Shown here: piece by piece, positions 11,231-62,603 of the stretch
Layout of the letters: each line of letters opens with the position of its first letter
Numbering within the stretch: position 1 is the stretch's first letter
DNA from: Parcubacteria group bacterium GW2011_GWA2_42_14
GTDB taxonomy: Bacteria; Patescibacteriota; Minisyncoccia; Sungbacterales; GWA2-42-14
Length of the DNA: 64,000 nucleotides
Direction of reading: 5' to 3'
NCBI GenBank assembly: GCA_000998135.1
Contig: LCCV01000001.1
Coordinates: 72,958 to 136,957 of the forward strand
Program-made: the position numbers and the translations under genes
Notes under the pieces: model-generated
The model's input: the letters and a program-made list of their open reading frames with translations, nothing else
What the model was told of the DNA's origin: nothing
Databases searched by the model: none

Positions 11231-11797
11231 ATGAATGAACAAATTATAACAACAACAAGGGCCGTTAAAACCAAACGCCTTGCCTACGCTCTTGCAAAAA
11301 AAATCCTAAAAAACCGCCATCAAAAACCTGCGATCATTATTGCACTTTCCGGCAATCTCGGCTCAGGAAAAACAACCTTTGTTCAGGGATTTGCCAAAGA
11401 ACTCGGCATCAAAGAAATTCCCAAAAGCCCCACTTTCATTTTAATGCAAATTTTTCCAATACCGCCTAAAAGCTATAAGCTAAAAGCTAAAAGCTTAATA
11501 CACATTGACGCCTACCGCCTAGAAAAACCGAAAGAACTTATACATCTCGGTCTGAAAGAAATTCTTCGCGACCCGCACAATATTGTGATAATTGAGTGGG
11601 CAGAGAAAGTAAAAGCACTATTGCCCAAAGATGCAATTTGGATATCATTTAGGCATGCCGGAAAAGATAAACGCCACATTGCTATAAAATCCCAATATCA
11701 AAAATTTGCCCCCTCGGCAAATTCCGGGGCTTCGCCCGTCGAAAGCCAAATAGTTGGCTTTCGACCCAAATCCCAAACAAAATCAAAATCCAAATAA
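11231..11797 (+). CDS. tsaE: tRNA threonylcarbamoyladenosine biosynthesis protein TsaE, with a C-terminal extension created by an in-frame repeat
   Basis: P-loop GNLGSGKTTFVQGFAKELGI and the HIDAYRL motif. The last ~35 aa (KSQYQKFAPSANSGASPVESQIVGFRPKSQT...) are encoded by the repeat at 11691-11778. Confidence 0.8.
   Translation: MNEQIITTTRAVKTKRLAYALAKKILKNRHQKPAIIIALSGNLGSGKTTFVQGFAKELGIKEIPKSPTFILMQIFPIPPKSYKLKAKSLIHIDAYRLEKPKELIHLGLKEILRDPHNIVIIEWAEKVKALLPKDAIWISFRHAGKDKRHIAIKSQYQKFAPSANSGASPVESQIVGFRPKSQTKSKSK
11691..11778. repeat. ~90-bp palindromic repeat element (three internal hairpins, e.g. gtcgaaagccaaatagttggctttcgac) inserted in frame in tsaE. A second copy lies in frame in the Mur ligase at 25165-25253.
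   Basis: About 90% nucleotide identity between the two copies. Both are translated as ...QKFA(P/F)SANSGASPVESQIVGF(R/Q)PKSQT. Confidence 0.8.
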
Positions 11798-14584: not shown

Positions 14585-15010
14585 ATGGCCGAATCAAACA
14601 CCCCTCCCGCACAAGGGGTAGAACAACCTAAACAAACCTCAATACTGGTGGTAGAAGACGACATTTTTTTGAGGAACCTAATCATTAAAAAACTGATGAA
14701 TGAGAATTATGTTATTTGGGATGCCACTGACGGGACATCCGCGCTAAAAGTGCTTGAAACCAAAAAACCGCACCTGATTCTACTTGATATTCTTTTGCCC
14801 GGCATCGACGGATTTGAAGTTTTGTCCCTACTGAAAAAAAACTCTGAACTCGCACAAATTCCGGTCATAATTCTTTCCAACCTTGGCTCCCAGGACGACA
14901 TTGAAAAAGCAATGAAACTGGGTGCTACCGATTATATTATCAAGGCCAATTTTACTCTTGAAGAAATAGCGGAACGGATAAAAAAGATTTTAGGAGAGAA
15001 ATACTTTTAA
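14585..15010 (+). CDS. Stand-alone response-regulator receiver (CheY-like REC) domain protein
   Basis: ILVVEDD...LILLDILLPGIDGFEV...DYIIK receiver-domain signature. Confidence 0.8.
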   Translation: MAESNTPPAQGVEQPKQTSILVVEDDIFLRNLIIKKLMNENYVIWDATDGTSALKVLETKKPHLILLDILLPGIDGFEVLSLLKKNSELAQIPVIILSNLGSQDDIEKAMKLGATDYIIKANFTLEEIAERIKKILGEKYF

Positions 15011-15107
15011 TAATTTAATCAACAAATAACGAATTCATTACGAATAAGCGAATAACGAATTCGTAATTCGTAAATTCGTACAAATTCGTTATTCGCTGAT
15101 AAATATA

Positions 15108-15914
15108 TTGCCGGAGTTACCCGAAGCAGAAACAATCGTAAAATATCTTAGGCCAAAAATCCGCGGCAAGCGGGTTTTAAAATTATGGTCAAACACGCCG
15201 CGGCTTTTCAGACAAGGAAAAAATCTTCATAAAATAAGCATCCTGATAAAAGGAAAAACAATTTTGGATACAACCCGAGTCGGAAAAAATATTGTTTTAG
15301 CTTTAAACAATCAATATAATCTCTATATCCATCTTATGATGACGGGTAAATTATTATGGAATTATTCCAAATTGAGAGAACGCCATATAAGATTTTCTAT
15401 GGAACTTAACGGCAAAAACACCCTGGCCCTGCACGATATCCGCAAATTCGGATGGATAAGATTAATTAAAAAAGAAAATTTTTCCGACGCGCGCGTAAAC
15501 AAGGACGCGCTTTCTATTTCATTTGAAGATTTTAAAAACTCGCTTAATTTACGAAAAATGAAAATAAAAAACGCGCTTTTAAACCAAAAAATTGTCCAAG
15601 GAATCGGCAATATCTACTCGGATGAGATTTTATGGTACGCTGGAATAGAACCGCTCCGGCCCGCAAACTCCCTGAATAGCAAAAAAATAAAAAGAATTTA
15701 TTCGGCCATGAAAAAGGTATTAAAAATGGCGATCCGGAAAGGCGGCACAAGTATGCGCGATTACCGAAAACCAAACGGAAAAAAGGGCGGATACTACCCA
15801 ATCCGCAGGGTTTACCAAAGAGAAGGAGAAAAGTGCGCGCGTGACGGCGCAATAATTAAACGAATTAAAATAGGAGGAAGGTCTGCGCATTTTTGCCCCT
15901 ATCACCAGACATGA
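15108..15914 (+). CDS. mutM: Formamidopyrimidine-DNA glycosylase (Fpg/Nei family), TTG start
   Basis: N-terminal (M)PELPE catalytic proline; C-terminal zinc finger CARDGAIIKRIKIGGRSAHFCPYHQ. Confidence 0.85.
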   Translation: MPELPEAETIVKYLRPKIRGKRVLKLWSNTPRLFRQGKNLHKISILIKGKTILDTTRVGKNIVLALNNQYNLYIHLMMTGKLLWNYSKLRERHIRFSMELNGKNTLALHDIRKFGWIRLIKKENFSDARVNKDALSISFEDFKNSLNLRKMKIKNALLNQKIVQGIGNIYSDEILWYAGIEPLRPANSLNSKKIKRIYSAMKKVLKMAIRKGGTSMRDYRKPNGKKGGYYPIRRVYQREGEKCARDGAIIKRIKIGGRSAHFCPYHQT

Positions 15915-15971
15915 AACATGAAACCTGAAACACGAAAAAACTCTGGTTTTATGCTTTATGCTTCATGATTC

Positions 15972-16907
15972 ATGATATATGTACTTTACGGCCCGGACAC
16001 CTACCGAAGCCGGCAAAAATTAAAGGAAATAATTGACGGATTCCGCAAAAAATATGGTTCGACTTCGCTCACCACAGGCGGAAATTTAAGTTTGGAAAAA
16101 TTTGATGCCGAAGAAAATGACTTTTCAAAAATCTCCGCCGCCGCGGAAAACCAATCGCTTTTCCAGGAAAAAAAACTCGTGGTTATTGAACGATTTTTTA
16201 CCTCAAAAAAGGTCGCTTATGAAACACTGAAAAAGAAGTTAAAATCGTGGCAGGAATCAAAAATAAATGTCTTTATTTTTTGGGACGAAAACGTGGCCAC
16301 CAAAAAAGAATTTAAAGAATTTTTGAAATTCGCCGAAAAGTCGCAGGAATTCAAAGAATTAACGCCGCAACAAACAAAATTATTTTTGGAAAAAGAAATG
16401 CTTAATCGCAAATTACGCCTGTCGGAAAAAGAAAAAACGGCCTTAATGAACCGCTTTAAAAATAATCTTTGGGGACTTGCTAATGAATTGGATAAAATAA
16501 CGCTTGGCTCGAACCTATCAACAGAAATTATCCTTAATAAAGAAGAAAAAATTTATAATTTCCTTGACGCTTTGATAGAAAGGCGCATAAACACTCCGCG
16601 GCTGCTTCTTTCTTTATACGAGGCCGGGGCCGAGGAACTCTATATTTTTGCCGCCATAGTCAATTCTTTCCGAAATCTTCTTTTGCTGAAAAAATATGCC
16701 GATAAACCGGCGCTGCTTTCTAAAATTGAAAAAGAGTTCGGAATTCATCCATATGTTTTCAAAAAACTTTTAGCCCAATCGCAAAGATATGGCCTAAAAA
16801 CTCTTACCATAATTTACAAAAAACTGCTGGAATACGATATTGCTTTAAAACTCGGCAAAACAAAACTAGAGTATATAGTTTTTGACCTAATGAACAAAAA
16901 ATTATAA
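15972..16907 (+). CDS. holA: DNA polymerase III delta subunit
   Basis: N-terminal MIYVLYGPDTYRSRQKL, typical of HolA. 311 aa. Confidence 0.7.
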   Translation: MIYVLYGPDTYRSRQKLKEIIDGFRKKYGSTSLTTGGNLSLEKFDAEENDFSKISAAAENQSLFQEKKLVVIERFFTSKKVAYETLKKKLKSWQESKINVFIFWDENVATKKEFKEFLKFAEKSQEFKELTPQQTKLFLEKEMLNRKLRLSEKEKTALMNRFKNNLWGLANELDKITLGSNLSTEIILNKEEKIYNFLDALIERRINTPRLLLSLYEAGAEELYIFAAIVNSFRNLLLLKKYADKPALLSKIEKEFGIHPYVFKKLLAQSQRYGLKTLTIIYKKLLEYDIALKLGKTKLEYIVFDLMNKKL

Positions 16908-17935: not shown

Positions 17936-18490
17936 TCACAACAATGATCTTGATTTTAATAAAACTCCTAAAAAGGAAACTACGGCCAGGGCCGACATTG
18001 TTAAGAACAAAATCTGAAATCCAAATTTTGAAACAACTAATCCGCCGATTACAGCCGCAACGGCAACGGTCAGATTTTCAATCAATTTCCAATCGGCATA
18101 TTCTTCAACATATCTGCCCTTATCAAGGTGTTCCGCAAAAATGGTATCAAATGAGGGGTTACCAACGGCCTCGCCCACACCAAGCAAAATTAGTAATAAA
18201 ATTAGTAAAATAAAATTATTCACAAATGCAAACAATAACCAAGCAATAGCTCTAATCAGATAACCGCTCATTAAAAGATATTCCTTTTCTATAATTCTGT
18301 CGCCAACTTTGGATATCAAAAAAGTGAAAACTGTTGTGGAAATAAGAAAAGTTGCCCAAGAAAGACTAATCACCAAAATACTCTTCTCAAAATTTTGAAT
18401 GAATACTGCATAAAGCGGCCCCAATAGTCCTCCAGCCAAAACAAAAATAGCATTATATAAAAATAAAACTTTTAATGCTTTATTGCCCAT
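17936..18490 (-). CDS. Membrane protein, about 6 transmembrane helices, MFS-half-like, 184 aa
   Basis: Hydrophobic helices throughout. Ends 2 bp before the toxin-antitoxin cassette and may be a truncated transporter. Confidence 0.45.
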   Translation of the reverse strand: MGNKALKVLFLYNAIFVLAGGLLGPLYAVFIQNFEKSILVISLSWATFLISTTVFTFLISKVGDRIIEKEYLLMSGYLIRAIAWLLFAFVNNFILLILLLILLGVGEAVGNPSFDTIFAEHLDKGRYVEEYADWKLIENLTVAVAAVIGGLVVSKFGFQILFLTMSALAVVSFLGVLLKSRSLL

Positions 18491-18534
18491 ATTTTAATGA
18501 TAATACGCTACGCCAAAATTACCAATGGGATAAA

Positions 18535-20583
18535 TCAAGGTTTTGAAATTTTCTTAATCTGATCCCTAATCCGCGCCGCTAACTCGAAGTTCATTTCCTT
18601 TGCAGCCCGCTTCATTTCTCTTTCCAGCGCTTTTAAAACATCTTTTTTCGGGCCTTGCGGAATCAACGGCGCCAACTCTTCCTCCTGACGCCCTTTTGCT
18701 TCTTCAAGCAGTGATTTTCTTATTTCTTTTTGAATTTGTTGGGGGGTAATGCTGTGTTCAGCGTTATAGTCAGCTTGAATTTGGCGACGACGTTCGGTTT
18801 CGCCCATCGCTCTTTTCATGGAATCGGTAACGGTATCTGCATACATAATTACTTCGCCGTTCAAATGGCGCGCGGCCCGACCGGTAATTTGTAAAAGGGT
18901 GCGCTCGTTTCGCAAAAATCCTTCTTTGTCTGCGTCCAATATCGCAATAAAAGAAACCTCCGGCAAATCAAGGCCTTCCCGCAATAAATTAATACCGACA
19001 ACAGCGTCATAATTTCCAAGACGCAGGTCTTTTAAAATTTCCGGCCGGTCAAGGGTTTTGATTTCAGAATGAAGATAAGTTGTTTTAATTCCCGCTTCGG
19101 CCAAATACTCGGCAATATCTTCGGCCAAACGCTTGGTTAAAGCCAATACAAGCGACCTCTCTTTTTTTGCAACGCGCTTTTTTATTTCGCGAATAACATC
19201 TTTGATTTGGCCTGCGGTTTTACGGACTTCAATTTTTGGGTCAAGAAGGCCAGTGGGACGGATTAGTTGCTCTGCTATCGCAACTTCCGACTTCCGACTT
19301 CCAGCTTCCAACTTTTTGCACACACTCATTTTTAGCTCGTAATCTGCTGGCGTTGCCGAAACATAAATAATCGGCCCGACTTTTTTGTTAAATTCCGGAA
19401 ATTTAAGAGGACGGTTATCTATTGCCGAAGGCAAGCGAAAACCGTATTCCACAAGGGTTTTTTTACGGGCAAAATCGCCTTCATACATTCCTCTTAACTG
19501 CGGAACGGTTGCGTGCGATTCGTCTATGAAACAGAGCCAGTTTTTGGAGACCGGGACTCCTAAGGAGTCCCGGTCTCCTTGTTGACCATAAGCATAATTA
19601 AAATAATCAATCAATGTATAAGGCGGGCTTCCCGGCTCGCGAAAAGAAAGGTGGCGCGAATAATTTTCAATGCCATTGCAATATCCAGTTTCTTTAAGCA
19701 TCTCCATATCAAAGTTGGTACGCTCGGCCAATCTTTGCGCTTCAAGAAGCTTTCCTGATTTTTTAAAATAGGCAACGCGCTCTTTTGCTTCCTGCTTGAT
19801 GTTTTTGATAGCAAGCTCCAGTTTTTGACGGGGAGTAACGAAGTGTTTGGCGGGGAAAATTTTAATAGGGTTTGGGGTATAGGGTTTAGGGTTTAGGGTG
19901 CCGACTTTTCTTACGGTAATTTTTTCAATGCTGTTGCCGGAAAATTCTACAACTATTATTTCTTCGCCGGAGGGAGAATGGATTTCAACCATATCTCCGC
20001 GGATACGGAATTCCCCTTGTCTGGGGTCAAAATCATTACGATGATACTGCAAAAGCACTAAATAGCGAGCAACTTCGCGTGGAGAAATTTTCTGGCCGAT
20101 TTTCAATTCGTTTGCCACTTTTTCATATTCTTCCGGGTCCCCAATTCCGTAAATGCAAGAAACAGAAGCAACAATAATTACATCATTACGAGTAAGTAAA
20201 CTTGCAGTTGAAGCATGACGCAAACCGTCAATCAATTCATTGATTTTGGCATCTTTTTCAATATAGGTATCGGTTGAAGGAATATAGGCCTCTGGCTGAT
20301 AATAATCATAATAAGAAACAAAATAATGCATCGCGCTCTCCGGAAAAAATTCCTTGAATTCCTGATACAATTGCGCGGCCAGGGTTTTATTGTGAGAAAT
20401 AACAAGCGTTGGTTTTTGCACGCGCTCAATCACGTTAGCCATGGTGAATGTTTTGCCCGAACCGGTAACGCCGAGGAGAGTCTGGCGCAACACCCCCATA
20501 TCCAAATTTGCCACGAGCTTTTCAATGGCTTGTGGTTGGTCCCCCATGGGTTTAAATTTTGAAACGAGTTTGAAGCTTGGCAT
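18535..20583 (-). CDS. uvrB: Excinuclease ABC subunit B (UvrB), carrying in-frame palindrome and simple-repeat insertions
   Basis: N-terminal KPMGDQPQAIEKLV; helicase motifs GVTGSGKT and FIDESHATVPQ; C-terminal UvrB/UvrC interaction region. Confidence 0.9.
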   Translation of the reverse strand: MPSFKLVSKFKPMGDQPQAIEKLVANLDMGVLRQTLLGVTGSGKTFTMANVIERVQKPTLVISHNKTLAAQLYQEFKEFFPESAMHYFVSYYDYYQPEAYIPSTDTYIEKDAKINELIDGLRHASTASLLTRNDVIIVASVSCIYGIGDPEEYEKVANELKIGQKISPREVARYLVLLQYHRNDFDPRQGEFRIRGDMVEIHSPSGEEIIVVEFSGNSIEKITVRKVGTLNPKPYTPNPIKIFPAKHFVTPRQKLELAIKNIKQEAKERVAYFKKSGKLLEAQRLAERTNFDMEMLKETGYCNGIENYSRHLSFREPGSPPYTLIDYFNYAYGQQGDRDSLGVPVSKNWLCFIDESHATVPQLRGMYEGDFARKKTLVEYGFRLPSAIDNRPLKFPEFNKKVGPIIYVSATPADYELKMSVCKKLEAGSRKSEVAIAEQLIRPTGLLDPKIEVRKTAGQIKDVIREIKKRVAKKERSLVLALTKRLAEDIAEYLAEAGIKTTYLHSEIKTLDRPEILKDLRLGNYDAVVGINLLREGLDLPEVSFIAILDADKEGFLRNERTLLQITGRAARHLNGEVIMYADTVTDSMKRAMGETERRRQIQADYNAEHSITPQQIQKEIRKSLLEEAKGRQEEELAPLIPQGPKKDVLKALEREMKRAAKEMNFELAARIRDQIKKISKP
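19546..19578. repeat. Perfect 33-bp palindrome (ggagaccgggactcc taa ggagtcccggtctcc) inserted in frame in uvrB and translated as GDRDSLGVPVS
   Basis: Seen directly. It lies just before the conserved FIDESH helicase motif. Confidence 0.8.
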
Positions 20584-20642
20584 TTTTATTATTTTTACTA
20601 ATATTAATACGCTTCATTGACAAAACAAAAAGGGCACAAAAG

Positions 20643-21215
20643 ATGAGAAAATTTAACGCAATCCTAGTAATCTCTTGTATCCTATTCTTAATTTTGGCGG
20701 TTGGATTGATTCCAATAAACTCTGCCTCCGCCAACGAACCTGGCCCCGACTTCAAAAACTGGACCAAGTCGCGTGAGTGGGTAGAACAAAATGATGTTGA
20801 TATCGTCAAAAGAACATTTCAAGGCCCGAGCAATCACGATAACGAAGTATTTACCCTTTCCCTAAGAACAGAAAAAAATGAAACCCTATTCAAAGAATGG
20901 GACTATAAACAAAAGGGTTCGATTAAATCCGCTCTCCGCCTCCCCAGCGGGGAATGGTTTGTGGGAGATACGGGGAAGAGGGTAGATATACATATGGAAC
21001 TAGGCCTGTTCGGTTACAATCTATTTATTCATGTGTTTAAGTTAGAAAATAAGTGGTTTGCAAAATGCAAGAAAGAAAATGAGGAAATGAAAAAGAAGCA
21101 AGCGTGGCCATGGAGTAAGGTTGAAAGCGAAGACTGCAACAAATTTCTCGATGATAAAAAATACAACGGTATGTATATTTCAATTCCGGTTCGAAAATAC
21201 GACTGGAAAGAGTAA
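20643..21215 (+). CDS. Secreted or membrane-anchored hypothetical protein
   Basis: Signal peptide or transmembrane anchor MRKFNAILVISCILFLILAVGL. A terminator hairpin (gccggtaccactgccggc + T-run) follows at 21225-21255. Confidence 0.5.
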   Translation: MRKFNAILVISCILFLILAVGLIPINSASANEPGPDFKNWTKSREWVEQNDVDIVKRTFQGPSNHDNEVFTLSLRTEKNETLFKEWDYKQKGSIKSALRLPSGEWFVGDTGKRVDIHMELGLFGYNLFIHVFKLENKWFAKCKKENEEMKKKQAWPWSKVESEDCNKFLDDKKYNGMYISIPVRKYDWKE

Positions 21216-21891: not shown

Positions 21892-21907
21892 GTATTGACT
21901 GACTTTA

Positions 21908-21953
21908 GCAACACTCGGTGTTGCTTACTATAAGCAACACCGAGTGTTGCTAA
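21908..21953. repeat. Two tandem copies of the palindrome agcaacactcggtgttgct. A third copy (agcaacactcagtgttg) lies at 10096-10112. A terminator hairpin (aaccgcctattggcggtt) follows.
   Basis: Seen directly at gene 3' ends. Confidence 0.6.
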
Positions 21954-22065
21954 AACAAAACCGCCTATTGGCGGTTTACTACTGCGGACAATTAAATGTT
22001 ATGCAACGTAATATTATAGTGCTGAAGCCAGACGGCCTCCGCGGCCTCACCTGACGCAATAACGG

Positions 22066-22482: not shown

Positions 22483-23391
22483 ATGCAAGAGTTCGCAAAT
22501 TCAAAACCCAATATAACTCACTCTTTCTTGCAATCCTACGAATGGGAAAAATTGCAGGAAGCGCTAGGCAGAAAAAACTGGCGCATTGAAGGGCACTTGG
22601 TAATTCAGCACGACCTGCCGCAGGGTTTTAATTATCTTTACGCCCCGCACCTGCCGCATCTTACCGACCAATTTTTGCACCAAATCAGGAATATCGCGCT
22701 CCAAGAAAAATCGCTATTTCTTAAAATTGACCCGCACGGAAAAACCGAGGAATGGGAAATGGATATAAGGGGCTGGCAATTTTCTGATTTCCTGCAGCCG
22801 CAAAAAACAATCATTCTTGATTTAACCAAAACCGAAAATGAACTGCTGAAGGAAATGCATCCCAAAACCCGCTATAACGTGCATCTCGCGGAAAAACACG
22901 GCGTAAATGTTTTCAAATGTAAAACCCATGATATAAAAGAGCATCTTGATATGTTTTGGGACCTGCTTACCGAAACTGCCGGCCGCGACGTTTTCCATCT
23001 TCATGTAAAGCATTACTATCAAAAATTGCTGACACTGCAGGGGCAAAATTTTTCCAATCGCCTTGTTGTGGCCGAGCACCGCGGCAAAGCTCTGGCGGCT
23101 GCCATTATCAATTATTACCACGATACAGCCACTTATTTACACGGAGCATCTGCTTCAATCAACCGCGAAATAATGGCCCCGCACCTTCTGCATTGGAAAA
23201 TAATTCAGGACGCCAAAAAGGACGGTTTTAAAAAATACGACCTCTGGGGAATTGACGAAGAAAAATGGCCCGGTGTTACGCGATTCAAACTTGGATTCGG
23301 CGGACAGGTAATTGAATATCCGCGGTCAATAGACATTATTTTCAGACCGATGTGGTATAGAGCGTATAAAGTATTAAGAAAAATTGTTTAA
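22483..23391 (+). CDS. FemAB-family peptidoglycan bridge-formation aminoacyltransferase
   Basis: 302 aa with FemABX-like GNAT-duplication architecture (LTKTENELLKEMHPKTRYNVHLAEKHGV, ATYLHGAS, KYDLWGI). Confidence 0.65.
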   Translation: MQEFANSKPNITHSFLQSYEWEKLQEALGRKNWRIEGHLVIQHDLPQGFNYLYAPHLPHLTDQFLHQIRNIALQEKSLFLKIDPHGKTEEWEMDIRGWQFSDFLQPQKTIILDLTKTENELLKEMHPKTRYNVHLAEKHGVNVFKCKTHDIKEHLDMFWDLLTETAGRDVFHLHVKHYYQKLLTLQGQNFSNRLVVAEHRGKALAAAIINYYHDTATYLHGASASINREIMAPHLLHWKIIQDAKKDGFKKYDLWGIDEEKWPGVTRFKLGFGGQVIEYPRSIDIIFRPMWYRAYKVLRKIV

Positions 23392-23466
23392 TCAACCAAC
23401 AACCGACAACCCACAACTAACAACACATGTTGTAAGTTGTAAGTTGTAAGTTGTAAGTTACAAGGG

Positions 23467-23999: not shown

Positions 24000-25427
24000 A
24001 TGAATCAATTTTTTGGTATTTTTAAAAAAATAATTCCGCGGTCATTAGCGGTTTTTTTTCGACCTGCTTATCACTACATTTTAGCATTGCTGGCGGCAAT
24101 TTTTTATTGGTTTCCTTCACAAAATCTTATTGTTATAGGTGTTACGGGCACCAATGGCAAATCAACCGTTGTGGAACTAATTCACGCGATTTTAACCGAA
24201 GCCGGATTTAAAACCGGCTCAATTTCGTCCTTGCGGTTTAAAATCGGAAACAAAGAACAACAAAACAAACTAAAAATGACCATGCCGGGAAGATTTGCCT
24301 TGCAAAAATTCCTGCGGGAAAGCGTTTCCGCCGGATGCGAATACGCAGTTTTGGAAGTAACTTCAGAAGGAATAAAACAATACCGCAACAAATTCATAAA
24401 ATTTGATGTAGCAGTTATAACTAATGTTACTCCGGAACATATTGAATCCCACGGAAGTTTTGAAAATTACTTAGCGGCAAAAATGAAGCTTTTTGAACAG
24501 GTTTCGTGTTCAAGACCCGACCTTTTTCGTTCAAGGTCGGGTCTTAACGACGGCGTTTTAATCATCAACAGCGACGACCCCAATGCCCAAAAATTTCTGC
24601 AATTCCCGGCTAATGTAAAATATGTTTATAATTCGGGTTTTATTAGTATAGAAAAAAATGGTTCCACACAAAAAATCTCGCTCACCGAAAAACTGGTAAC
24701 TCCGGAAAGAATAAGTTTTAAACTGCAAAATACGGTAATTTCTTCGCGCTTAATCGGCGAATTTAATTTTTATAATATTTTAGCGGCGGTTTCAATAGCC
24801 ATCTCTCAAAATATCGGCTTGGAAAAGATAAAAACGGCTTTGGCAAAAATTTATGGAATTCCTGGCCGTCTTGAATTTGTGCAAAAAAAACCATTTGCGG
24901 TAGTAGTGGATTATGCTCACACGCCAGACGCGTTGCGTAAGGTTTACGAAACATTAAAAGAAACATGTCTCATGTCCCATGTCCCCTGTCGCATGATTTG
25001 TGTTCTTGGTTCAGCCGGAGGAGGCAGAGACAAATGGAAAAGGCCGGAGATGGGTAAAATTGCCGCGGAGTTTTGCGATGAAATTATTTTAACCAATGAA
25101 GACCCCTACGATGAGAGCCCTCTCGATATTATAAAAGATATTGAGAAAGGGTTCTCGTCGAAATCCCAAATCCAAAAATTTGCCTTCTCGGCAAATTCCG
25201 GGGCTTCGCCCGTTGAAAGCCAAATTGTTGGCTTTCAACCCAAATCCCAAACCATAATTAATAGGCGGGAAGCCATACGCGAAGCCATAAAATCGGCAAG
25301 GGTTGGAGATACCGTTATAATTACCGGCAAAGGCGCCGAGCCCTACATCATGGGTCCGAATAACACAAAAATTCCCTGGGACGATAGAAAAATAGTTCAA
25401 GATATATTGGAAAATGTAAAAAAGTAA
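24000..25427 (+). CDS. Mur-ligase-family protein (MurE/MurF-like UDP-N-acetylmuramoyl-peptide ligase) with an in-frame repeat insertion at 25165-25253
   Basis: P-loop VIGVTGTNGKSTV; Mur ligase C-terminal domain (VGDTVIITGKGAE). The same repeat is found in tsaE. Confidence 0.75.
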   Translation: MNQFFGIFKKIIPRSLAVFFRPAYHYILALLAAIFYWFPSQNLIVIGVTGTNGKSTVVELIHAILTEAGFKTGSISSLRFKIGNKEQQNKLKMTMPGRFALQKFLRESVSAGCEYAVLEVTSEGIKQYRNKFIKFDVAVITNVTPEHIESHGSFENYLAAKMKLFEQVSCSRPDLFRSRSGLNDGVLIINSDDPNAQKFLQFPANVKYVYNSGFISIEKNGSTQKISLTEKLVTPERISFKLQNTVISSRLIGEFNFYNILAAVSIAISQNIGLEKIKTALAKIYGIPGRLEFVQKKPFAVVVDYAHTPDALRKVYETLKETCLMSHVPCRMICVLGSAGGGRDKWKRPEMGKIAAEFCDEIILTNEDPYDESPLDIIKDIEKGFSSKSQIQKFAFSANSGASPVESQIVGFQPKSQTIINRREAIREAIKSARVGDTVIITGKGAEPYIMGPNNTKIPWDDRKIVQDILENVKK

Positions 25428-33308: not shown

Positions 33309-33419
33309 GTAAACCGATGCAAATATACTAATGAATACTAATGATACAAATAATCATACGAATAACGGATTTGTATAGTTATTCGTATAATTCGTATGCA
33401 TTTGTATATTGGTATCGCA

Positions 33420-34241
33420 TTAAAATAATGAAGCTTGCAAATCCTGCGGGGCTTTGTAAAACTCATTTATTGGCTCGGCCGCGAGAATTCCTTCCATTTT
33501 GAATTTGCGAAGGCCTTGTCGAAGGTGGCAATACGCGGAAATTTCTTTACCGTTTATTCCATAAATATCTATCTTCCTTTTTTTCTTAAAATCCTCGCCC
33601 TTGGAGGCCTGCCTGGAAACATATTCAATGAAAAGCCGCTGGCGGTTCTTAAAAGCATTTTCAATGGTATTAAACAAAGAAAGTTCCGGCATTTTCTGCC
33701 AATTTACCGCAACCGCCCTTTTTTGTTTTTCATACAATGATTCAAAAAGAAGGTGGCCATGTTTTTTTCCGTATTCATACAGGTCGCGGGTCAATTCAAC
33801 ATCTTTCAAACAATATTTTTTTATATCGTCAATTCTGCCTTCTTTAAACCATTGAAGAGCTTGCAAGCCATCGGCGGATTTTTTCGCGCCAAGCGTTGCT
33901 CCGGCTAAACTTTGCAAAGACAAACGGTGGCCCAATTTTGTCGTAACATCTTCAAAAATATCAAGGGTCGGAAGCAAAGCAATATTTACATTTTTAAAAT
34001 ACGGCTGAAGCACCTGATAATCAAAACTTTTAGTGTTAAAACCTATTAAAAGTTCGGCATTCTCAATAGCTTCTTCAAACTGCGGAATTTCTCGCTCCTC
34101 ATACGCCTGAAATTTAGCGGTTTCATAAAAATAAGCGCCCACAACCGAGACGCCAAGAGCGCTAACATTATTCCTTCCCCCGACTTCATCAAATGATTTT
34201 TTTGTCTCTACGTCAAATACTATCTCTTTCATAATTTCCAC
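33420..34241 (-). CDS. DEDD-type 3'-5' exonuclease (DnaQ/PolB-exonuclease-like, YprB/COG3359-like) with a C-terminal extension
   Basis: Exo I IVFDVET; Exo II GFNTKSFDYQVL; Exo III YCLKDV. Confidence 0.6.
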   Translation of the reverse strand: MEIMKEIVFDVETKKSFDEVGGRNNVSALGVSVVGAYFYETAKFQAYEEREIPQFEEAIENAELLIGFNTKSFDYQVLQPYFKNVNIALLPTLDIFEDVTTKLGHRLSLQSLAGATLGAKKSADGLQALQWFKEGRIDDIKKYCLKDVELTRDLYEYGKKHGHLLFESLYEKQKRAVAVNWQKMPELSLFNTIENAFKNRQRLFIEYVSRQASKGEDFKKKRKIDIYGINGKEISAYCHLRQGLRKFKMEGILAAEPINEFYKAPQDLQASLF

Positions 34242-49469: not shown

Positions 49470-50003
49470 ATGATTAAACTAAATCCTGATGAAAAAATTT
49501 TAATGGTTATACGGCGTCACTGGTTCGTTATGGTCGGACCGGTGGTTCTTTTGATTATTTTGCTTGTTTTTCCTTCTATTTTTTTAACTACAGTTCCCTA
49601 TTTTTATCCGGCCCTAAACAATAGTCCAGAAATTCAACCAATGATTAATTTTTCTCTGGCTCTTTACATTTTAACCGTTATCCTGTATCTATTTATCTGG
49701 TGGTCTGACTATTATCTTGATATCTGGATAATAACCAATAAAAGATTGGTTGATATTGAACAAAAAGGGCTATTCAACAGGCACATTTCCGAAATGAATG
49801 TAGAAAATATTCAAAACGTCACATTGCAAATTGAAGGTCTAATTCCGACACTTCTTAAATTCGGCAACCTGCTGGTGGAAACGGCCGGAGAGGGACAGTT
49901 TAAAATAAAAGACGCGCCGAATTTGTATGAGGCAAAAGATTTACTTTTGAGATTTTCAAACCACCATACCAACCAACAACCCACAACCAACAACCCACAA
50001 TAG
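49470..50003 (+). CDS. Bacterial PH-domain (YdbS/YdbT-like) membrane protein
   Basis: Two N-terminal transmembrane helices then a bPH_2-like region. The C-terminal tail (QQPTTNNPQ) is encoded by (caacc)-type repeats. Confidence 0.55.
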   Translation: MIKLNPDEKILMVIRRHWFVMVGPVVLLIILLVFPSIFLTTVPYFYPALNNSPEIQPMINFSLALYILTVILYLFIWWSDYYLDIWIITNKRLVDIEQKGLFNRHISEMNVENIQNVTLQIEGLIPTLLKFGNLLVETAGEGQFKIKDAPNLYEAKDLLLRFSNHHTNQQPTTNNPQ

Positions 50004-50043
50004 GTGTTATAAGTTATTAGTTGTAAGTTGTAAGTTATGAGGA

Positions 50044-50787
50044 ATGTCCGGACATTCTAAATGGGCGCAAATAAAACACAAAAAGGCCTTGACCGACGCC
50101 AAGAAGGGAAAGGCCTTTTCCAAAATATCCAGAATGATTACGGTCGCGGTAAAAGAAAAACAAAACCGCGACCCCTCGACCAATTCCAAATTAAGAACCG
50201 CTATTGAAAAAGCAAGATCTCTTGGTATGCCCGGAGAAAACGTGGAACGGGCAATGGCCAAAGGACTTGGCGAAGGAAAAGAAGGAGAAGGGCTCAAAGA
50301 AGTTTTGTATGAAGCTTTCGGCCCTGAGGGAACAGCATTGATAATTGCCGGCATTACCGACAACAAAAACAGGACAACCGCAGAAATAAAACACCTTCTT
50401 TCCGAACACGGCGGGCGCTTGTCCGAAAAAGGAAGCGTGGAGTGGATGTTTAACCATGTCGCGGCATTTGATTTTAACGCGAAGGACTTCTTAAAAACAG
50501 AAGAGGCTGAGCTTTTTCTAATTGATGCCGGAGCAGAAGACATTTCTAAAAACGATTCATTAATGACGGCTTACGTATCCCCGCAATCATCAGATATTTT
50601 TAGAAAAAAACTTGAGGCCAAATCCATAAAACCCAAAGAAGAATATTTTGACTATATGCCCAAAAACAAACTCTCTTTATTAAATGAGGAAACAAAGCAA
50701 AAGGTAATCGGCCTTATGGATGCCCTGGATGATAATGATGACGTGCAGGAGGTTTATACCAACATAGAGATAGAACATGAAACCTGA
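50044..50787 (+). CDS. yebC: YebC/PmpR-family transcriptional regulator
   Basis: MSGHSKWAQIKHKK N-terminus. Confidence 0.9.
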   Translation: MSGHSKWAQIKHKKALTDAKKGKAFSKISRMITVAVKEKQNRDPSTNSKLRTAIEKARSLGMPGENVERAMAKGLGEGKEGEGLKEVLYEAFGPEGTALIIAGITDNKNRTTAEIKHLLSEHGGRLSEKGSVEWMFNHVAAFDFNAKDFLKTEEAELFLIDAGAEDISKNDSLMTAYVSPQSSDIFRKKLEAKSIKPKEEYFDYMPKNKLSLLNEETKQKVIGLMDALDDNDDVQEVYTNIEIEHET

Positions 50788-50848
50788 ATCATGTAACATG
50801 ATAGTTAAAAATTGTGTTTCCTGGTTCATGATTTATGATTCATGATTC

Positions 50849-51328
50849 ATGATTATTTTAGGAGTTGACCCCGGAACCACTACTGTAGGTTACTGCCTCT
50901 TGCAAAAAAACGGCAGAGCTCTTAAATTGGTTGAAGCCGGCGCGATTAAAACGGTGCCCAAATCGGAACAAGCGGAAAAAATCCTTATAATCTCCAATAA
51001 ATTGAAGGAAATAATAGATATCCACAGGCCAAGTATTTTAGCTATTGAAAAGGTCTTCTTTTTTAAGAATAATAAGACAGCGATGTCGGTTGCCGAAGCC
51101 AAAGGAGCCATACTCTTGACAGCCAAAAATTTAGGCCTTAAAGTGTATGAATACACGCCCCTTGAAGTAAAAATGGCTCTAACCGGCTACGGAAGAGCGG
51201 ACAAAAAACAGGTTGAATATATGGTTAAAAACGTCCTTAAGCTCGAAACAGCGCCCAAACTTGATGACATAACCGACGCTATGGCCATAGCCATTACTTG
51301 CGCCAATAGTATTGCCAATTTGCAGTAA
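50849..51328 (+). CDS. ruvC: Crossover junction endodeoxyribonuclease RuvC
   Basis: MIILGVDPGTTTVGY; catalytic Asp/Glu pattern. Confidence 0.9.
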   Translation: MIILGVDPGTTTVGYCLLQKNGRALKLVEAGAIKTVPKSEQAEKILIISNKLKEIIDIHRPSILAIEKVFFFKNNKTAMSVAEAKGAILLTAKNLGLKVYEYTPLEVKMALTGYGRADKKQVEYMVKNVLKLETAPKLDDITDAMAIAITCANSIANLQ

Positions 51329-58504: not shown

Positions 58505-58680
58505 AATCTCTAATCAATCTCTAATTTTTCCGCGAATTATCCATAATTCGCGATTATTTGAGATATCTTATTAACGGGTAATTCGAGATTTTCAAAACAC
58601 CTTTGTATTATAAATTGAATACGCAATACGGCAAAATTTCATAAACTGAATAATATGTTGAGAGACTGTTAATAACTCAA

Positions 58681-58760
58681 CCGACAACTTATAACCTACA
58701 ACCAATAACACGTTTCGCCGTTTAGCTGTTATGGGTTGTCAGTTGTCAGTTGTTAGTTTA
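58681..58760. repeat. Palindromic (acaac...)n / (gttgt...)n motif repeat flanking rpmH on the 5' side. A partner lies at 58910-58968, with family members at 23393-23465, 49961-50037, 47914-47972 and 5897-5940.
   Basis: The left half is tandem caac/acaac-type units and the right half is their reverse complement (gttgtaagttgtaag). Confidence 0.65.
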
Positions 58761-58770
58761 TATTATATGT

Positions 58771-58908
58771 ATGTCTATCACGTATCAGCCAAAAAAGAGA
58801 AAAAGAAAAAAGGTTCATGGATTTTTGAAAAGGATGGCCACGCCGACAGGAAGAAGGGTATTAAACCGGAGAAGGGGGAAAGGGAGAAAGAAGATTACTG
58901 TGGTATAA
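58771..58908 (+). CDS. rpmH: 50S ribosomal protein L34
   Basis: Manual translation gives [45 protein letters not shown] (compare E. coli [44 protein letters not shown]). The ORF track lists a different, overlapping frame (58731-58913). Confidence 0.85.
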
Positions 58909-58975
58909 ACTAACAACTAACAACTCACAACCAACAATGCGTGTTGTAAGTTATGGGTTGTAAGTTACGAAAAGT

Positions 58976-60494: not shown

Positions 60495-60613
60495 TGCCAA
60501 TCTATAAATGAAATGTTAACTCTATAAATTATGAATTAGTTTTTCCTACAAATTACGAATTTTGCCGAATTACGAATTCGTAATTCGAATCCATTCATAA
60601 TTTATAGGATAAT

Positions 60614-62472: not shown

Positions 62473-62603
62473 AGCTTTACGAATTACGAATTTTTACCTA
62501 GTCCGTTAAACGGGTTAGGACGAATTTAAGAATCGATATATTCTAACTTTAATATTCGTACATTCGTACTGATTAGTAATTCGTAAATATTTATTAATAC
62601 ATA

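Follow-up and report, generated by a model that had tools for sequence, protein, structure and literature searches.

In-frame palindromes and heptanucleotide repeats in variable loops of uvrB and other housekeeping genes of Parcubacteria

Protein-coding palindromes are best known from Rickettsia and a few bacteria rich in repetitive extragenic palindromic (REP) sequences, and the analysis described here extends them to the Candidate Phyla Radiation (CPR). Intragenic REPs have been found in uvrA, uvrB, uvrD, recBCD and polA, including uvrB of Rickettsia conorii, often as inverted dimers that encode 20-30 amino acids (aa), and one of the Rickettsia palindromic elements (RPE), RPE-1, is reported to be expressed within its host protein (Di Nocera et al., 2013; PMC3733652). 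The in-frame RPEs, which are ~150 bp in length, were, in the summary given in PMC10969869, first described as elements with a conserved peptide (Ogata et al., 2000, 2002). The second class of repeats relevant here are the heptamers, which show the strongest over-representation among the long simple sequence repeats (SSRs) of prokaryotes and for which slippage with a step of ~7 nt has been proposed (Mrazek et al., 2007, as outlined in PMC4692102 and PMC4679880). Full-text literature searches returned no specific description of in-frame palindromes in CPR bacteria, and a search for heptamer repeats that included the term 'Patescibacteria' gave no CPR paper. A perfect palindrome and two heptanucleotide arrays occur in frame in the uvrB gene of Parcubacteria group bacterium GW2011_GWA2_42_14, within a 64-kb stretch of contig LCCV01000001.1 that was analyzed as a whole (hereinafter, the window).

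The product of this uvrB gene aligns with UvrB of Bacillus caldotenax (2fdc) with an E-value of 5.8e-240 and is 100% identical to the UvrB proteins of Parcubacteria GW2011_GWA2_42_14 and two Candidatus Sungbacteria bins; the G+C content of the window is 40.4%. The three sequence features in the gene, denoted sites A, B and C (Table 1), are real and far beyond chance. Site A is a perfect 33-bp palindrome immediately upstream of the FIDESH motif, as a preceding sequence-only reading of the window had it. Its letters are GGAGACCGGGACTCCT-a-AGGAGTCCCGGTCTCC, that is, two 16-nt arms of 100% complementarity around a single centre nucleotide, and it consists of two inverted 15-mers, GGAGACCGGGACTCC and GGAGTCCCGGTCTCC (the window type of the 15-mer is also written GGAGACCSGGACTCC). 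The palindrome is flanked by caaGGAG...CTCCaaa, lies in frame five codons before FIDESH and, as RNA, folds with -33.4 kcal/mol (z = -7.7). The arm has no second occurrence in the window, for a chance expectation of 0.53 matches with at most 3 mismatches.

Sites B and C are arrays of period 7, each with 4.9 copies and 85% matches according to Tandem Repeats Finder (TRF). Site B, of the (CTTCCGA) type, reads GGAAGCT GGAAGTC GGAAGTC GGAAGTT on the coding strand and encodes KLEAGSRKSEVA; a (cttccga)n run had been recognized here from the letters alone, and only its placement at ~19265-19300 has to be shifted, by ~15 nt to the right. Site C, of the (TTTAGGG) type, likewise corresponds to a run seen earlier near 19860-19895; it encodes TLNPKPYTPNPI and, on the coding strand, is a (CCCTAAA)n array with one off-register base that turns TAA into TAT. 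Folding of the two arrays as RNA gives 0 and -8.1 kcal/mol (z ~0 to 1), i.e., they are unstructured, and a role for RNA structure in the arrays was accordingly rejected.

Table 1. Repeats and associated features in the 64-kb window (positions in nt from the first letter of the window) and lengths of the three aligned UvrB segments.
Feature	Position	Strand	Details	Evidence
uvrB coding sequence	18535-20583	-	682 aa; host of three repeats	list of open reading frames (ORFs) and homology
Site A, perfect palindrome	19546-19578	.	16+1+16; translated G336-S346 (GDRDSLGVPVS)	inverted-repeat search
Mosaic tract around the palindrome	19528-19602	-	~75 nt; F328-F352, FNYAYGQQ-hairpin-KNWLCF	alignments, neighbour-joining (NJ) tree, sliding window
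Site B, heptanucleotide array	19281-19314	-	12-aa insertion (K424-A435) before EQLIRPTG	TRF
Site C, heptanucleotide array	19866-19899	-	domain-2 loop, T229-I240; no added length	TRF
Site A segment, IDYF... to residue before IDESH			baseline 11 aa in most Parcubacteria, 15 aa in most Sungbacteria; window 28 aa	
Site B segment, YEL... to residue before EQLIRPTG			baseline 11 aa; window 23 aa	
Site C segment, domain-2 loop			baseline 23 aa (as in Bacillus); window 23 aa	
(CTAAAAG)n array in tsaE (11231-11797)	11465-11499	+	8-aa insertion PPKSYKLKAK	gap versus TsaE 6n9a
Sister palindrome in C-terminal extension of tsaE ORF	11738-11765	+	GTCGAAAGCCAA-atag-TTGGCTTTCGAC	search: 2 matches, 0 expected
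Perfect hairpin in frame in murE (24000-25427)	24512-24545	+	13-nt arms, 8-nt loop tttcgttc	gap versus solved MurE homologues
(CATGTCC)n array in frame in murE	24963-24992	+		5-aa gap versus solved MurE homologues
Palindrome in frame in murE	25212-25239	+	GTTGAAAGCCAA-attg-TTGGCTTTCAAC; 12-nt arms	gap versus solved MurE homologues
Intergenic double palindrome	21904-21954	.	24-nt arms, 3-nt loop; two inverted CAACACYSRGTGTTG	inverted-repeat search
Inverted heptamer-array pair (hairpin) after femAB-like gene	23393-23465	+	(CAACCAA)n, then (GTTGTAA)n	TRF; fold z = -3.3
Similar intergenic inverted array pairs	15909-15977; 49968-50036; 50774-50857; 58678-58762 (also 58904-58937)			

The UvrB comparison set comprised 83 Parcubacteria genes, 80 from GTDB loci and three from additional contigs. 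Relative to B. caldotenax UvrB, the window protein shows gaps of 17 aa at site A and 13 aa at site B and no net gap at site C. Both A and B also exceed the Sungbacteria baseline, whereas site C has the same 23 codons as the orthologues, so that, by alignment, sites A and B are lineage-specific insertions and site C is not; of the three insertions originally proposed, two stand. Alignment of 30 Sungbacteria proteins shows sites A and B to be hypervariable, with 0 to ~60 aa of unrelated sequence. Other lineages carry perfect hairpins at these hotspots, with arms of 8-25 nt: arms of 13 and 15 nt were found at sites A/B in L010, of 16 nt in L042 and of 13 nt in L055, and in L206 a 50-bp perfect palindrome is formed by two inverted 17-mers. 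Heptamer arrays occupy the hotspots in L025, L026 and L082. In an AlphaFold2 model of the window UvrB, sites A and B are coil, with a predicted local distance difference test (pLDDT) score below 50 at residues 340-344 and 424-432, and site C forms a coil that connects two domain-2 strands. The suggestion that the repeats fall in loops is to this extent upheld, and all three probably lie in surface-exposed loops.

Because the three uvrB repeats are in frame, contain no stop codons and leave the ORF intact, they are presumably translated, as DNA-level repeats within three variable loops, the peptides predicted from the insert regions being GDRDSLGVPVSK, LEAGSR and VGTLNPKPYTPNPIK. Every hotspot insert in the 83 UvrB genes is likewise in frame and stop-free. 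Removal in the manner of an intron or intein was rejected on this ground, together with the stop-avoiding TAT patch and the lack of an Rfam match above threshold; an intein is excluded at the hotspot also because an 11-aa insert is too short. An E-value scan of positions 18400-20700 against Rfam produced two sub-threshold chance matches and no family reaching the threshold, which eliminates a known RNA family for the hairpin. A terminator or promoter role was dismissed as well: the 33-bp hairpin went unflagged in the scan, and this region does not exceed shuffled sequences in the number of sites.

The palindrome at site A has counterparts in relatives. In L081, whose UvrB is 88% identical to that of the window, the hairpin GGAAGTCGGACTTCC-CACTAT-GGAAGTCCGACTTCC occupies the same position in the codon alignment, and in L083 (71% identity) the same two arms enclose the loop CAA, again at the same codon position; L082 (81% identity) has no insert at site A. 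The arms of the window hairpin differ from those of L081 and L083 at 6 of the 15 positions, and each change is mirrored in the opposite arm. The arms of L081 and L083 are identical to each other, yet by our count from the printed alignment there are ~7 differences in the 30 flanking nucleotides. Judging from these comparisons, site A represents a diverged member of a dispersed family of double palindromes that consist of two inverted 15-mers of the GGAAGTC-S-GACTTCC type.

Each 15-mer of this family is itself palindromic: a 7-nt half-site is followed, after one centre base, by its own reverse complement. Two inverted 15-mers, usually 3-4 nt apart, form an element of 33-41 bp. Outside uvrB, the exact 15-mer GGAAGTCSGACTTCC was detected in a femAB-like gene (as the insert GSPTSI relative to the window ORF 22483-23391), in the Mur ligase of L032 and L035 (RKSDFRESGSRTSG) and in other places in the loci. 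The uvrB-centred loci, which amount to 1.3 Mb, contain ~13 prototype 15-mers. Given that, by our own estimate, a single given 15-mer is expected ~0.003 times by chance in 1.3 Mb, the GGAAGTCSGACTTCC family must have been either copied or selected at the sequence level. Sister families with compensated half-sites (e.g., GGAGGTC/GACCTCC, GGAAGCT/AGCTTCC and GGAAACC/GGTTTCC) are present as well.

A metagenome scan with the prototype doublet (GGAAGTCSGACTTCC type) revealed at least 120 stretches that contain it, the majority of them from groundwater, with up to three doublets on one 78-kb contig. Among the matches listed, 123 doublets were analyzed, and in these the loop length peaks at 4 nt (42 doublets) and 3 nt (21). 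In 112 of the 123 the centre bases are C..G or G..C, the second unit being the reverse complement of the first. About 73% of the listed doublets (90) lie inside ORFs of at least 120 aa and, depending on the frame, are translated as GSPTS/GSRTS, RKSDF or EVGLP; with a frame that changes from one gene to the next, conservation is at the nucleotide level. Twenty host ORFs were scanned against Pfam: they encode alanine racemase, CysRS, two IleRS-like proteins, LeuRS, PheRS beta, ATP synthase beta, TopA (twice, at the same site), PolX, UvrA, UvrB (three times), PurL, LepA and two Wzy_C (O-antigen ligase)/TPR proteins, and two have no Pfam match. In UvrB, the copies occupy site A and a third site that follows RPVTG. 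Viral contigs contained no match either to the prototype doublet or to the window 15-mer, and a phage origin of the doublet was therefore rejected.

Several individual cases encountered in these searches deserve mention. The third UvrB hotspot, which follows ...DPVIDIRPVTG and precedes QTQKGQVQDV, holds the 15-mer doublet in L139 and L187. A 518-aa ORF without a Pfam match in L086 (8470-10023) contains three separate GGAAGTCSGACTTCC doublets. Two IleRS-like class I synthetases on CPR contigs, L100 (1-3003, minus strand) and L105 (289-3930, minus strand), have the doublet inside the gene, and in both a Pfam match to the histidine phosphatase family His_Phos_1 splits the match to the catalytic domain tRNA-synt_1; the editing domain of class I enzymes normally sits at the location of this match. 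Another dispersed perfect palindrome, CTGCCTGCCGGCAGGCAG, was found in unrelated genes of different CPR lineages, namely in atpD of P0124 (locus L209; LPAGRQ) and at site B of uvrB in L040 (CLPAGR), and the site B peptide of L057 is similar to CLPAGR at the peptide level.

The palindrome of the window stands within a mosaic tract that replaces the sequence YRHRFGxDFLxx ancestral to its clade. In the NJ tree, built with the hotspot columns removed, the window and L081 belong to a clade with L082, L001 and L002-L011, all of which have the insert-free YYRHRFGxDFL state. The FNYAYG-hairpin-WLCF state belongs to another clade (L083, L204-L206, L010 and L015). When the alignment was examined in windows of 12 columns, those starting at residues 320-330 and 341-348 (together spanning residues ~320-359) were the only ones in which the distant clade is much closer to the window than the sister clade is, and this resemblance to the distant rather than the sister clade points to lateral acquisition of a patch.

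A parallel situation is seen in the ATP synthase beta gene, where, among alleles near a doublet-bearing one, the insert is present in some close relatives and absent in others. The filled allele of L207 carries a perfect 41-bp palindrome, GGAAGTCCGACTTCC-CCACCTGGTGG-GGAAGTCGGACTTCC, and L208, from a near-identical strain, represents the empty allele; the two differ by 19 mismatches over 2,880 columns, and 15 of these mismatches fall in a single patch that has 69 nt in place of 39 nt. The altered flanking codons of the filled L207 allele agree with those of other filled atpD alleles. In atpD of P0123, both centre bases have changed, from C..G to T..A, and because they changed together the hairpin is still perfect; in P0124, the different palindrome mentioned above occupies the loop used by the doublet. 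Taken together, the mosaic at site A of uvrB and the filled/empty pair of atpD indicate movement by short patches, and it appears likely, on this comparative evidence, that the elements spread between alleles by short homologous-recombination patches. L207 and P0122/P0127 have a further insert in ATP synthase beta, DLPSSAKATGGQNN, which is located close to the N-terminus; it is common to filled and empty alleles and is lacking in atpD of other close relatives.

The two arrays in uvrB are part of a general excess of period 7. Fifteen period-7 arrays of at least 28 nt were detected in the window, compared with two arrays of period 12 and none of periods 4-6 and 8-11, and 20 block shuffles of the window contained no period-7 arrays at all. 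In the Parcubacteria loci there are 64 such arrays versus at most 15 for any other period. The units are diverse, and a single dominant heptamer bound by a specific protein was rejected for this reason. Perfect hairpins (arm of at least 11 nt, loop of at most 9 nt) are similarly in excess, with 11 in the window versus 0 in each of 10 shuffles, and 178 in 1.34 Mb of Parcubacteria DNA versus 1-5 in shuffles, a ~40-fold (36- to 178-fold) enrichment; 62 of the 178 are located well inside ORFs of at least 150 aa.

At site C, 7 is the best period of the 23-codon segment in 41 of 82 Parcubacteria uvrB genes versus 174 of 1786 control segments, and a self-match of at least 0.75 is reached in 16 of the 82 genes. 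As none of the 1786 controls attains this level, the period-7 signal cannot stem from protein constraint. The unit depends on the lineage, being CCCTAAA in the window, CTACAAA in L026, ATACTAA in L062 and TTCTAAA in L018 and L047, and relatives of 81-88% identity have the heptamer loop in common. The comparison indicates that site C is an old heptamer-coded loop of 23 codons with units homogenised within lineages and not a recent insertion. On the same evidence, with units that are diverse both at this site and genome-wide, the telomere-like character ascribed to it is a coincidence; a telomere function was rejected for an array that is situated inside a coding sequence 19.9 kb into the window, has 4.9 copies and represents one heptamer among many. 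The TAT patch, shared by the window, L081 and L082, lies exactly at the position of the in-frame TAA that a perfect (CCCTAAA)n array would contain, which indicates ribosomal read-through of the array and selection against stops. The unit of site B, GGAAGTC, is the half-site of the palindrome family seen at site A in relatives, so that the three features are not cleanly independent, contrary to the initial impression; in L021, site B consists of the same unit family in reversed orientation. No copy-number variation of the arrays was found among four near-identical UvrB proteins, which have the same inserts, and turnover is apparent only between relatives of 81-88% identity.

Among described systems, the closest are REPs and REPINs, a concept reportedly due to Bertels and Rainey. 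These are short (20-40 bp) stem-loops that form inverted dimers folding together and are dispersed, with some in-frame copies that are thought to be tolerated in loops. The uvrB hairpin resembles them in being a stem-loop unit (16-nt arms; z = -7.7) and in its inverted pairing, which is found in the two inverted 15-mers of the window and in the 112 listed doublets noted above. Unlike REPs, the element shows no GTAG/CGTC tag, either at the uvrB flanks or in 63 aligned doublets, and whereas REPs are mostly extragenic, 90 of the 123 listed doublets are intragenic; furthermore, the unit is only 15 nt long and itself palindromic, the hosts are CPR bacteria, and the window copy is a single-copy variant. 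We know of no link between the Parcubacteria double palindrome and RAYT. With the RPEs, which are judged compatible with the protein fold, the element shares the appearance of a selfish palindromic repeat that occupies unrelated housekeeping genes in frame and resides in a reduced genome. Going by the available summary of the RPEs, it is set apart from them by its length (33-41 bp versus ~150 bp), by being read in any frame where the RPEs have a conserved peptide, and by a different sequence in a different phylum.

The arrays resemble heptamer SSRs, which in cyanobacteria are called STRR, in their head-to-tail 7-nt units, the excess of period 7, the number of copies (2-6), the mostly intergenic location and the inverted pairs that form stem-loops. 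They differ in the use of many units rather than one favoured heptamer (e.g., GGGAATC in Xanthomonas or TAACTGA in Beggiatoaceae), in that several are translated in essential genes despite a period that is not divisible by 3, and in the persistence of the period-7 signal at UvrB site C across much of Parcubacteria; strain copy-number variation, i.e., contingency behaviour, was not seen in the four near-identical UvrB proteins. The small dispersed repeats (SDR) of Nostoc, which Elhai et al. reportedly described in 2008, are said to be very small (<40 nt), in some cases hairpin-forming and to avoid coding regions; compared by description, the present elements are similarly short and dispersed but differ in location. 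DNA uptake sequences are said (Davidsen et al. in 2004) to be enriched in genome-maintenance genes; they are found within the coding sequences of repair genes and can form inverted pairs. Such motifs occur about once per kb, in contrast to none to few copies per tens of kb here, and a DNA uptake sequence was rejected because the density is far too low: within 64 kb the arm is found only in the hairpin, and there are ~13 prototype copies in 1.3 Mb.

The interpretation that we favour, and regard as fairly probable, is that two classes of repeats distributed across Parcubacteria (CPR) reside in frame in variable loops of uvrB, the palindrome having been brought in on a patch and the outcome having been filtered by selection. 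The site A element would be a very small non-coding double palindrome, resembling REP/REPIN as well as RPE, that is mostly located inside housekeeping genes and is read in whichever frame it lands. It would have arrived within the ~75-nt patch by short-tract recombination from another Sungbacteria lineage, and the exact complementarity of its arms would be maintained by templated copying from one arm to the other or, alternatively, by selection for the hairpin. The site B array, with the half-site of the palindrome family as its unit, probably expanded by slipped-strand or template-switch events, and site C would be the version of the old domain-2 heptamer loop that is specific to this lineage, with units homogenised within lineages. 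Only in-frame, stop-free versions in permissive loops would survive. We infer in this scheme the slippage origin of the arrays, the arm-to-arm copying, recombination as the vehicle and neutrality with respect to UvrB function.

The repeat invasion postulated from the sequence alone is thereby substantiated as repeated, lineage-wide colonisation of genes by repeats. Its companion claim, that the process itself preserves the frame, finds nothing in its favour: the TAT at the position of the would-be stop and the 15-mers in different frames indicate purifying selection as the filter, and the frame is probably preserved by such selection and not by the process.

Several points weigh against this interpretation. 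The window 15-mer GGAGACCGGGACTCC is a singleton across the 64-kb window, 210 loci and viral contigs, with the further copies of the palindrome arm that had been suggested for a search likewise missing from all three, and hence site A is assigned to the family by its position, its architecture and the flanks it shares with other copies rather than by sequence identity. Neither terminal inverted repeats nor target-site duplications of the kind that define a transposon were found at the uvrB copy, and no transposase or other enzyme could be tied to the element among the window ORFs identified (11 of ~65, namely ten scanned against Pfam plus uvrB). The outer inverted repeat CAATWT...AWATTG is present in only a subset of the 63 aligned doublets. 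The doublet has decayed in L204, so its maintenance is not universal, and the perfect complementarity of the arms with compensated changes is also compatible with a selected function of the hairpin. The NJ tree has no bootstrap support, the structural model is only moderate (mean pLDDT 65), and translation of the inserts would follow from the intact frames.

A more far-reaching proposal, which we put forward as a possibility we are inclined to doubt, is that CPR/Parcubacteria harbour an undescribed class of 33-41 bp double palindromes, mainly in essential genes, that is tied to the heptamer arrays by the shared 7-nt block. One copying process with a 7-nt step would then yield arrays when direct and palindromes when inverted and would homogenise the arms by arm-to-arm copying; the elements would spread from strain to strain and across lineages in recombination patches, possibly via natural competence and perhaps with the aid of a dedicated hairpin-recognising enzyme. 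If so, selfish or structural DNA in minimal genomes would find its 'intergenic space' in the loops of genes, and the elements would steadily give rise to new protein loops.

Local de novo origin of each repeat appears unlikely. Replication errors in tolerant loops, with fold-back or template switching giving palindromes and slippage giving arrays, would have converged via a bias for 7-nt steps. In agreement with such an origin, the half-site length of 7 nt equals the array period, the site B unit is a palindrome half-site, the units and palindromes are very diverse, and the window 15-mer is unique in the searches. The hairpins are nested palindromes of palindromes, as iterated inverted duplication predicts, and those examined at sites A/B are perfectly Watson-Crick, as predicted for DNA-templated copying, the search having been for perfect pairs only. 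This scenario is, however, difficult to reconcile with the recurrence of the GGAAGTCSGACTTCC doublet in at least 120 stretches, in many genes and lineages, and with the filled and empty atpD alleles, which differ by an imported patch.

Improbable as well is a selected cis-acting element, in which the hairpin would pause translation, provide a site for RNase III or another nuclease, or form a protein-bound cruciform, the peptide being a by-product. The complementarity that is kept through six mirrored changes per arm between the window and L081, the joint change of the P0123 centre bases, the identical arms of L081 and L083 between flanks that differ at synonymous sites and the high stability of the hairpin (-33.4 kcal/mol) would all be accommodated by this explanation. 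Intragenic REPs moreover show a bias to repair genes (Di Nocera et al., PMC3733652), and here 7 of the 20 scanned hosts belong to DNA metabolism. Against these observations stand the presence or absence of the element among close relatives and near-identical strains with nothing else changed, its decay in L204, the unrelated palindromes and arrays at the same hotspots, the lack of an Rfam match and of a terminator-like tail behind the hairpin, and the functionally unrelated host genes.

Still less credible is the possibility that the inserted peptides are adaptive loops that modify UvrB, at the UvrA contact or in the surroundings of helicase motif II, and are kept for that purpose. The inserts do adjoin functional parts (five residues before DESH, the linker of domains 1a and 3, and the UvrA-binding domain 2), and the frames are intact in all relatives. 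The hotspot peptides of close relatives are, however, unrelated, one DNA is read in different frames in different genes, the model has low pLDDT at A and B and shows coil for all three segments, and 0 of 1786 control segments reach the period-7 signal of site C. Finally, an assembly or sequencing artefact, be it chimeric inverted repeats, which can arise in metagenome-assembled genomes, or adaptor remnants, was rejected as having a negligible chance of being correct, given that the identical UvrB protein is found on 5+1+1+1 contigs from different samples and assemblies with invariant inserts, that related hairpins occur at the same codon in independent projects and that all inserts are in frame, and to our knowledge there is no match to common adaptor sequences.

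With repeats that colonise permissive loops under selection as the favoured explanation, reduced, gene-dense genomes are again involved, which suggests that repeats enter permissive protein loops when intergenic space is scarce. The GGAAGTCSGACTTCC doublet is a concrete, searchable element, and the filled/empty allele pairs make its spread testable. The heptamer arrays that persist and homogenise in an essential gene bear on the long-unexplained excess of 7-nt repeats in prokaryotes. In practical terms, the inserts both inflate and break up the alignments of marker proteins from CPR bacteria, indicate where UvrB, MurE, TsaE, TopA and ATP synthase have permissive sites, and are usable as strain or recombination markers.

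Elsewhere in the window, in-frame repeats are found in tsaE and murE (Table 1). The palindromes of these two genes form a two-copy family, GTYGAAAGCCAA-ATWG-TTGGCTTTCRAC, whose members are one compensated position apart and on the same strand; no copy was detected in the 206 loci searched. The murE hairpin has nearly the same loop as the hairpin at site A of L010 (11016-11050), tttcgttc versus ttttcgttc, with different 13-nt arms. Of 20 period-7 arrays mapped in the window, five are wholly within ORFs: two in uvrB, one in tsaE, one in murE and a fifth at the 3' end of the ORF 49470-50003. The arrays of the window are mostly intergenic; they often form inverted pairs directly behind genes, and these pairs fold into hairpins. 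Such hairpins are imperfect at 15900-15985 (z = -4.3) and, likewise, after the femAB-like gene, and the inverted heptamer pairs after gene ends may be terminator-like or REP-like structures made of 7-nt units. The intergenic double palindrome begins 13 nt past the ruvA stop codon, is built of a self-palindromic 15-mer and has the same architecture as the uvrB hairpin. Four further intergenic regions (15009-15109, 33344-33421, 60541-60612 and 62477-62569) contain AT-rich inverted and tandem repeats with ATTCGTA/TACGAAT-like motifs, which could be operators, promoters or another repeat family.

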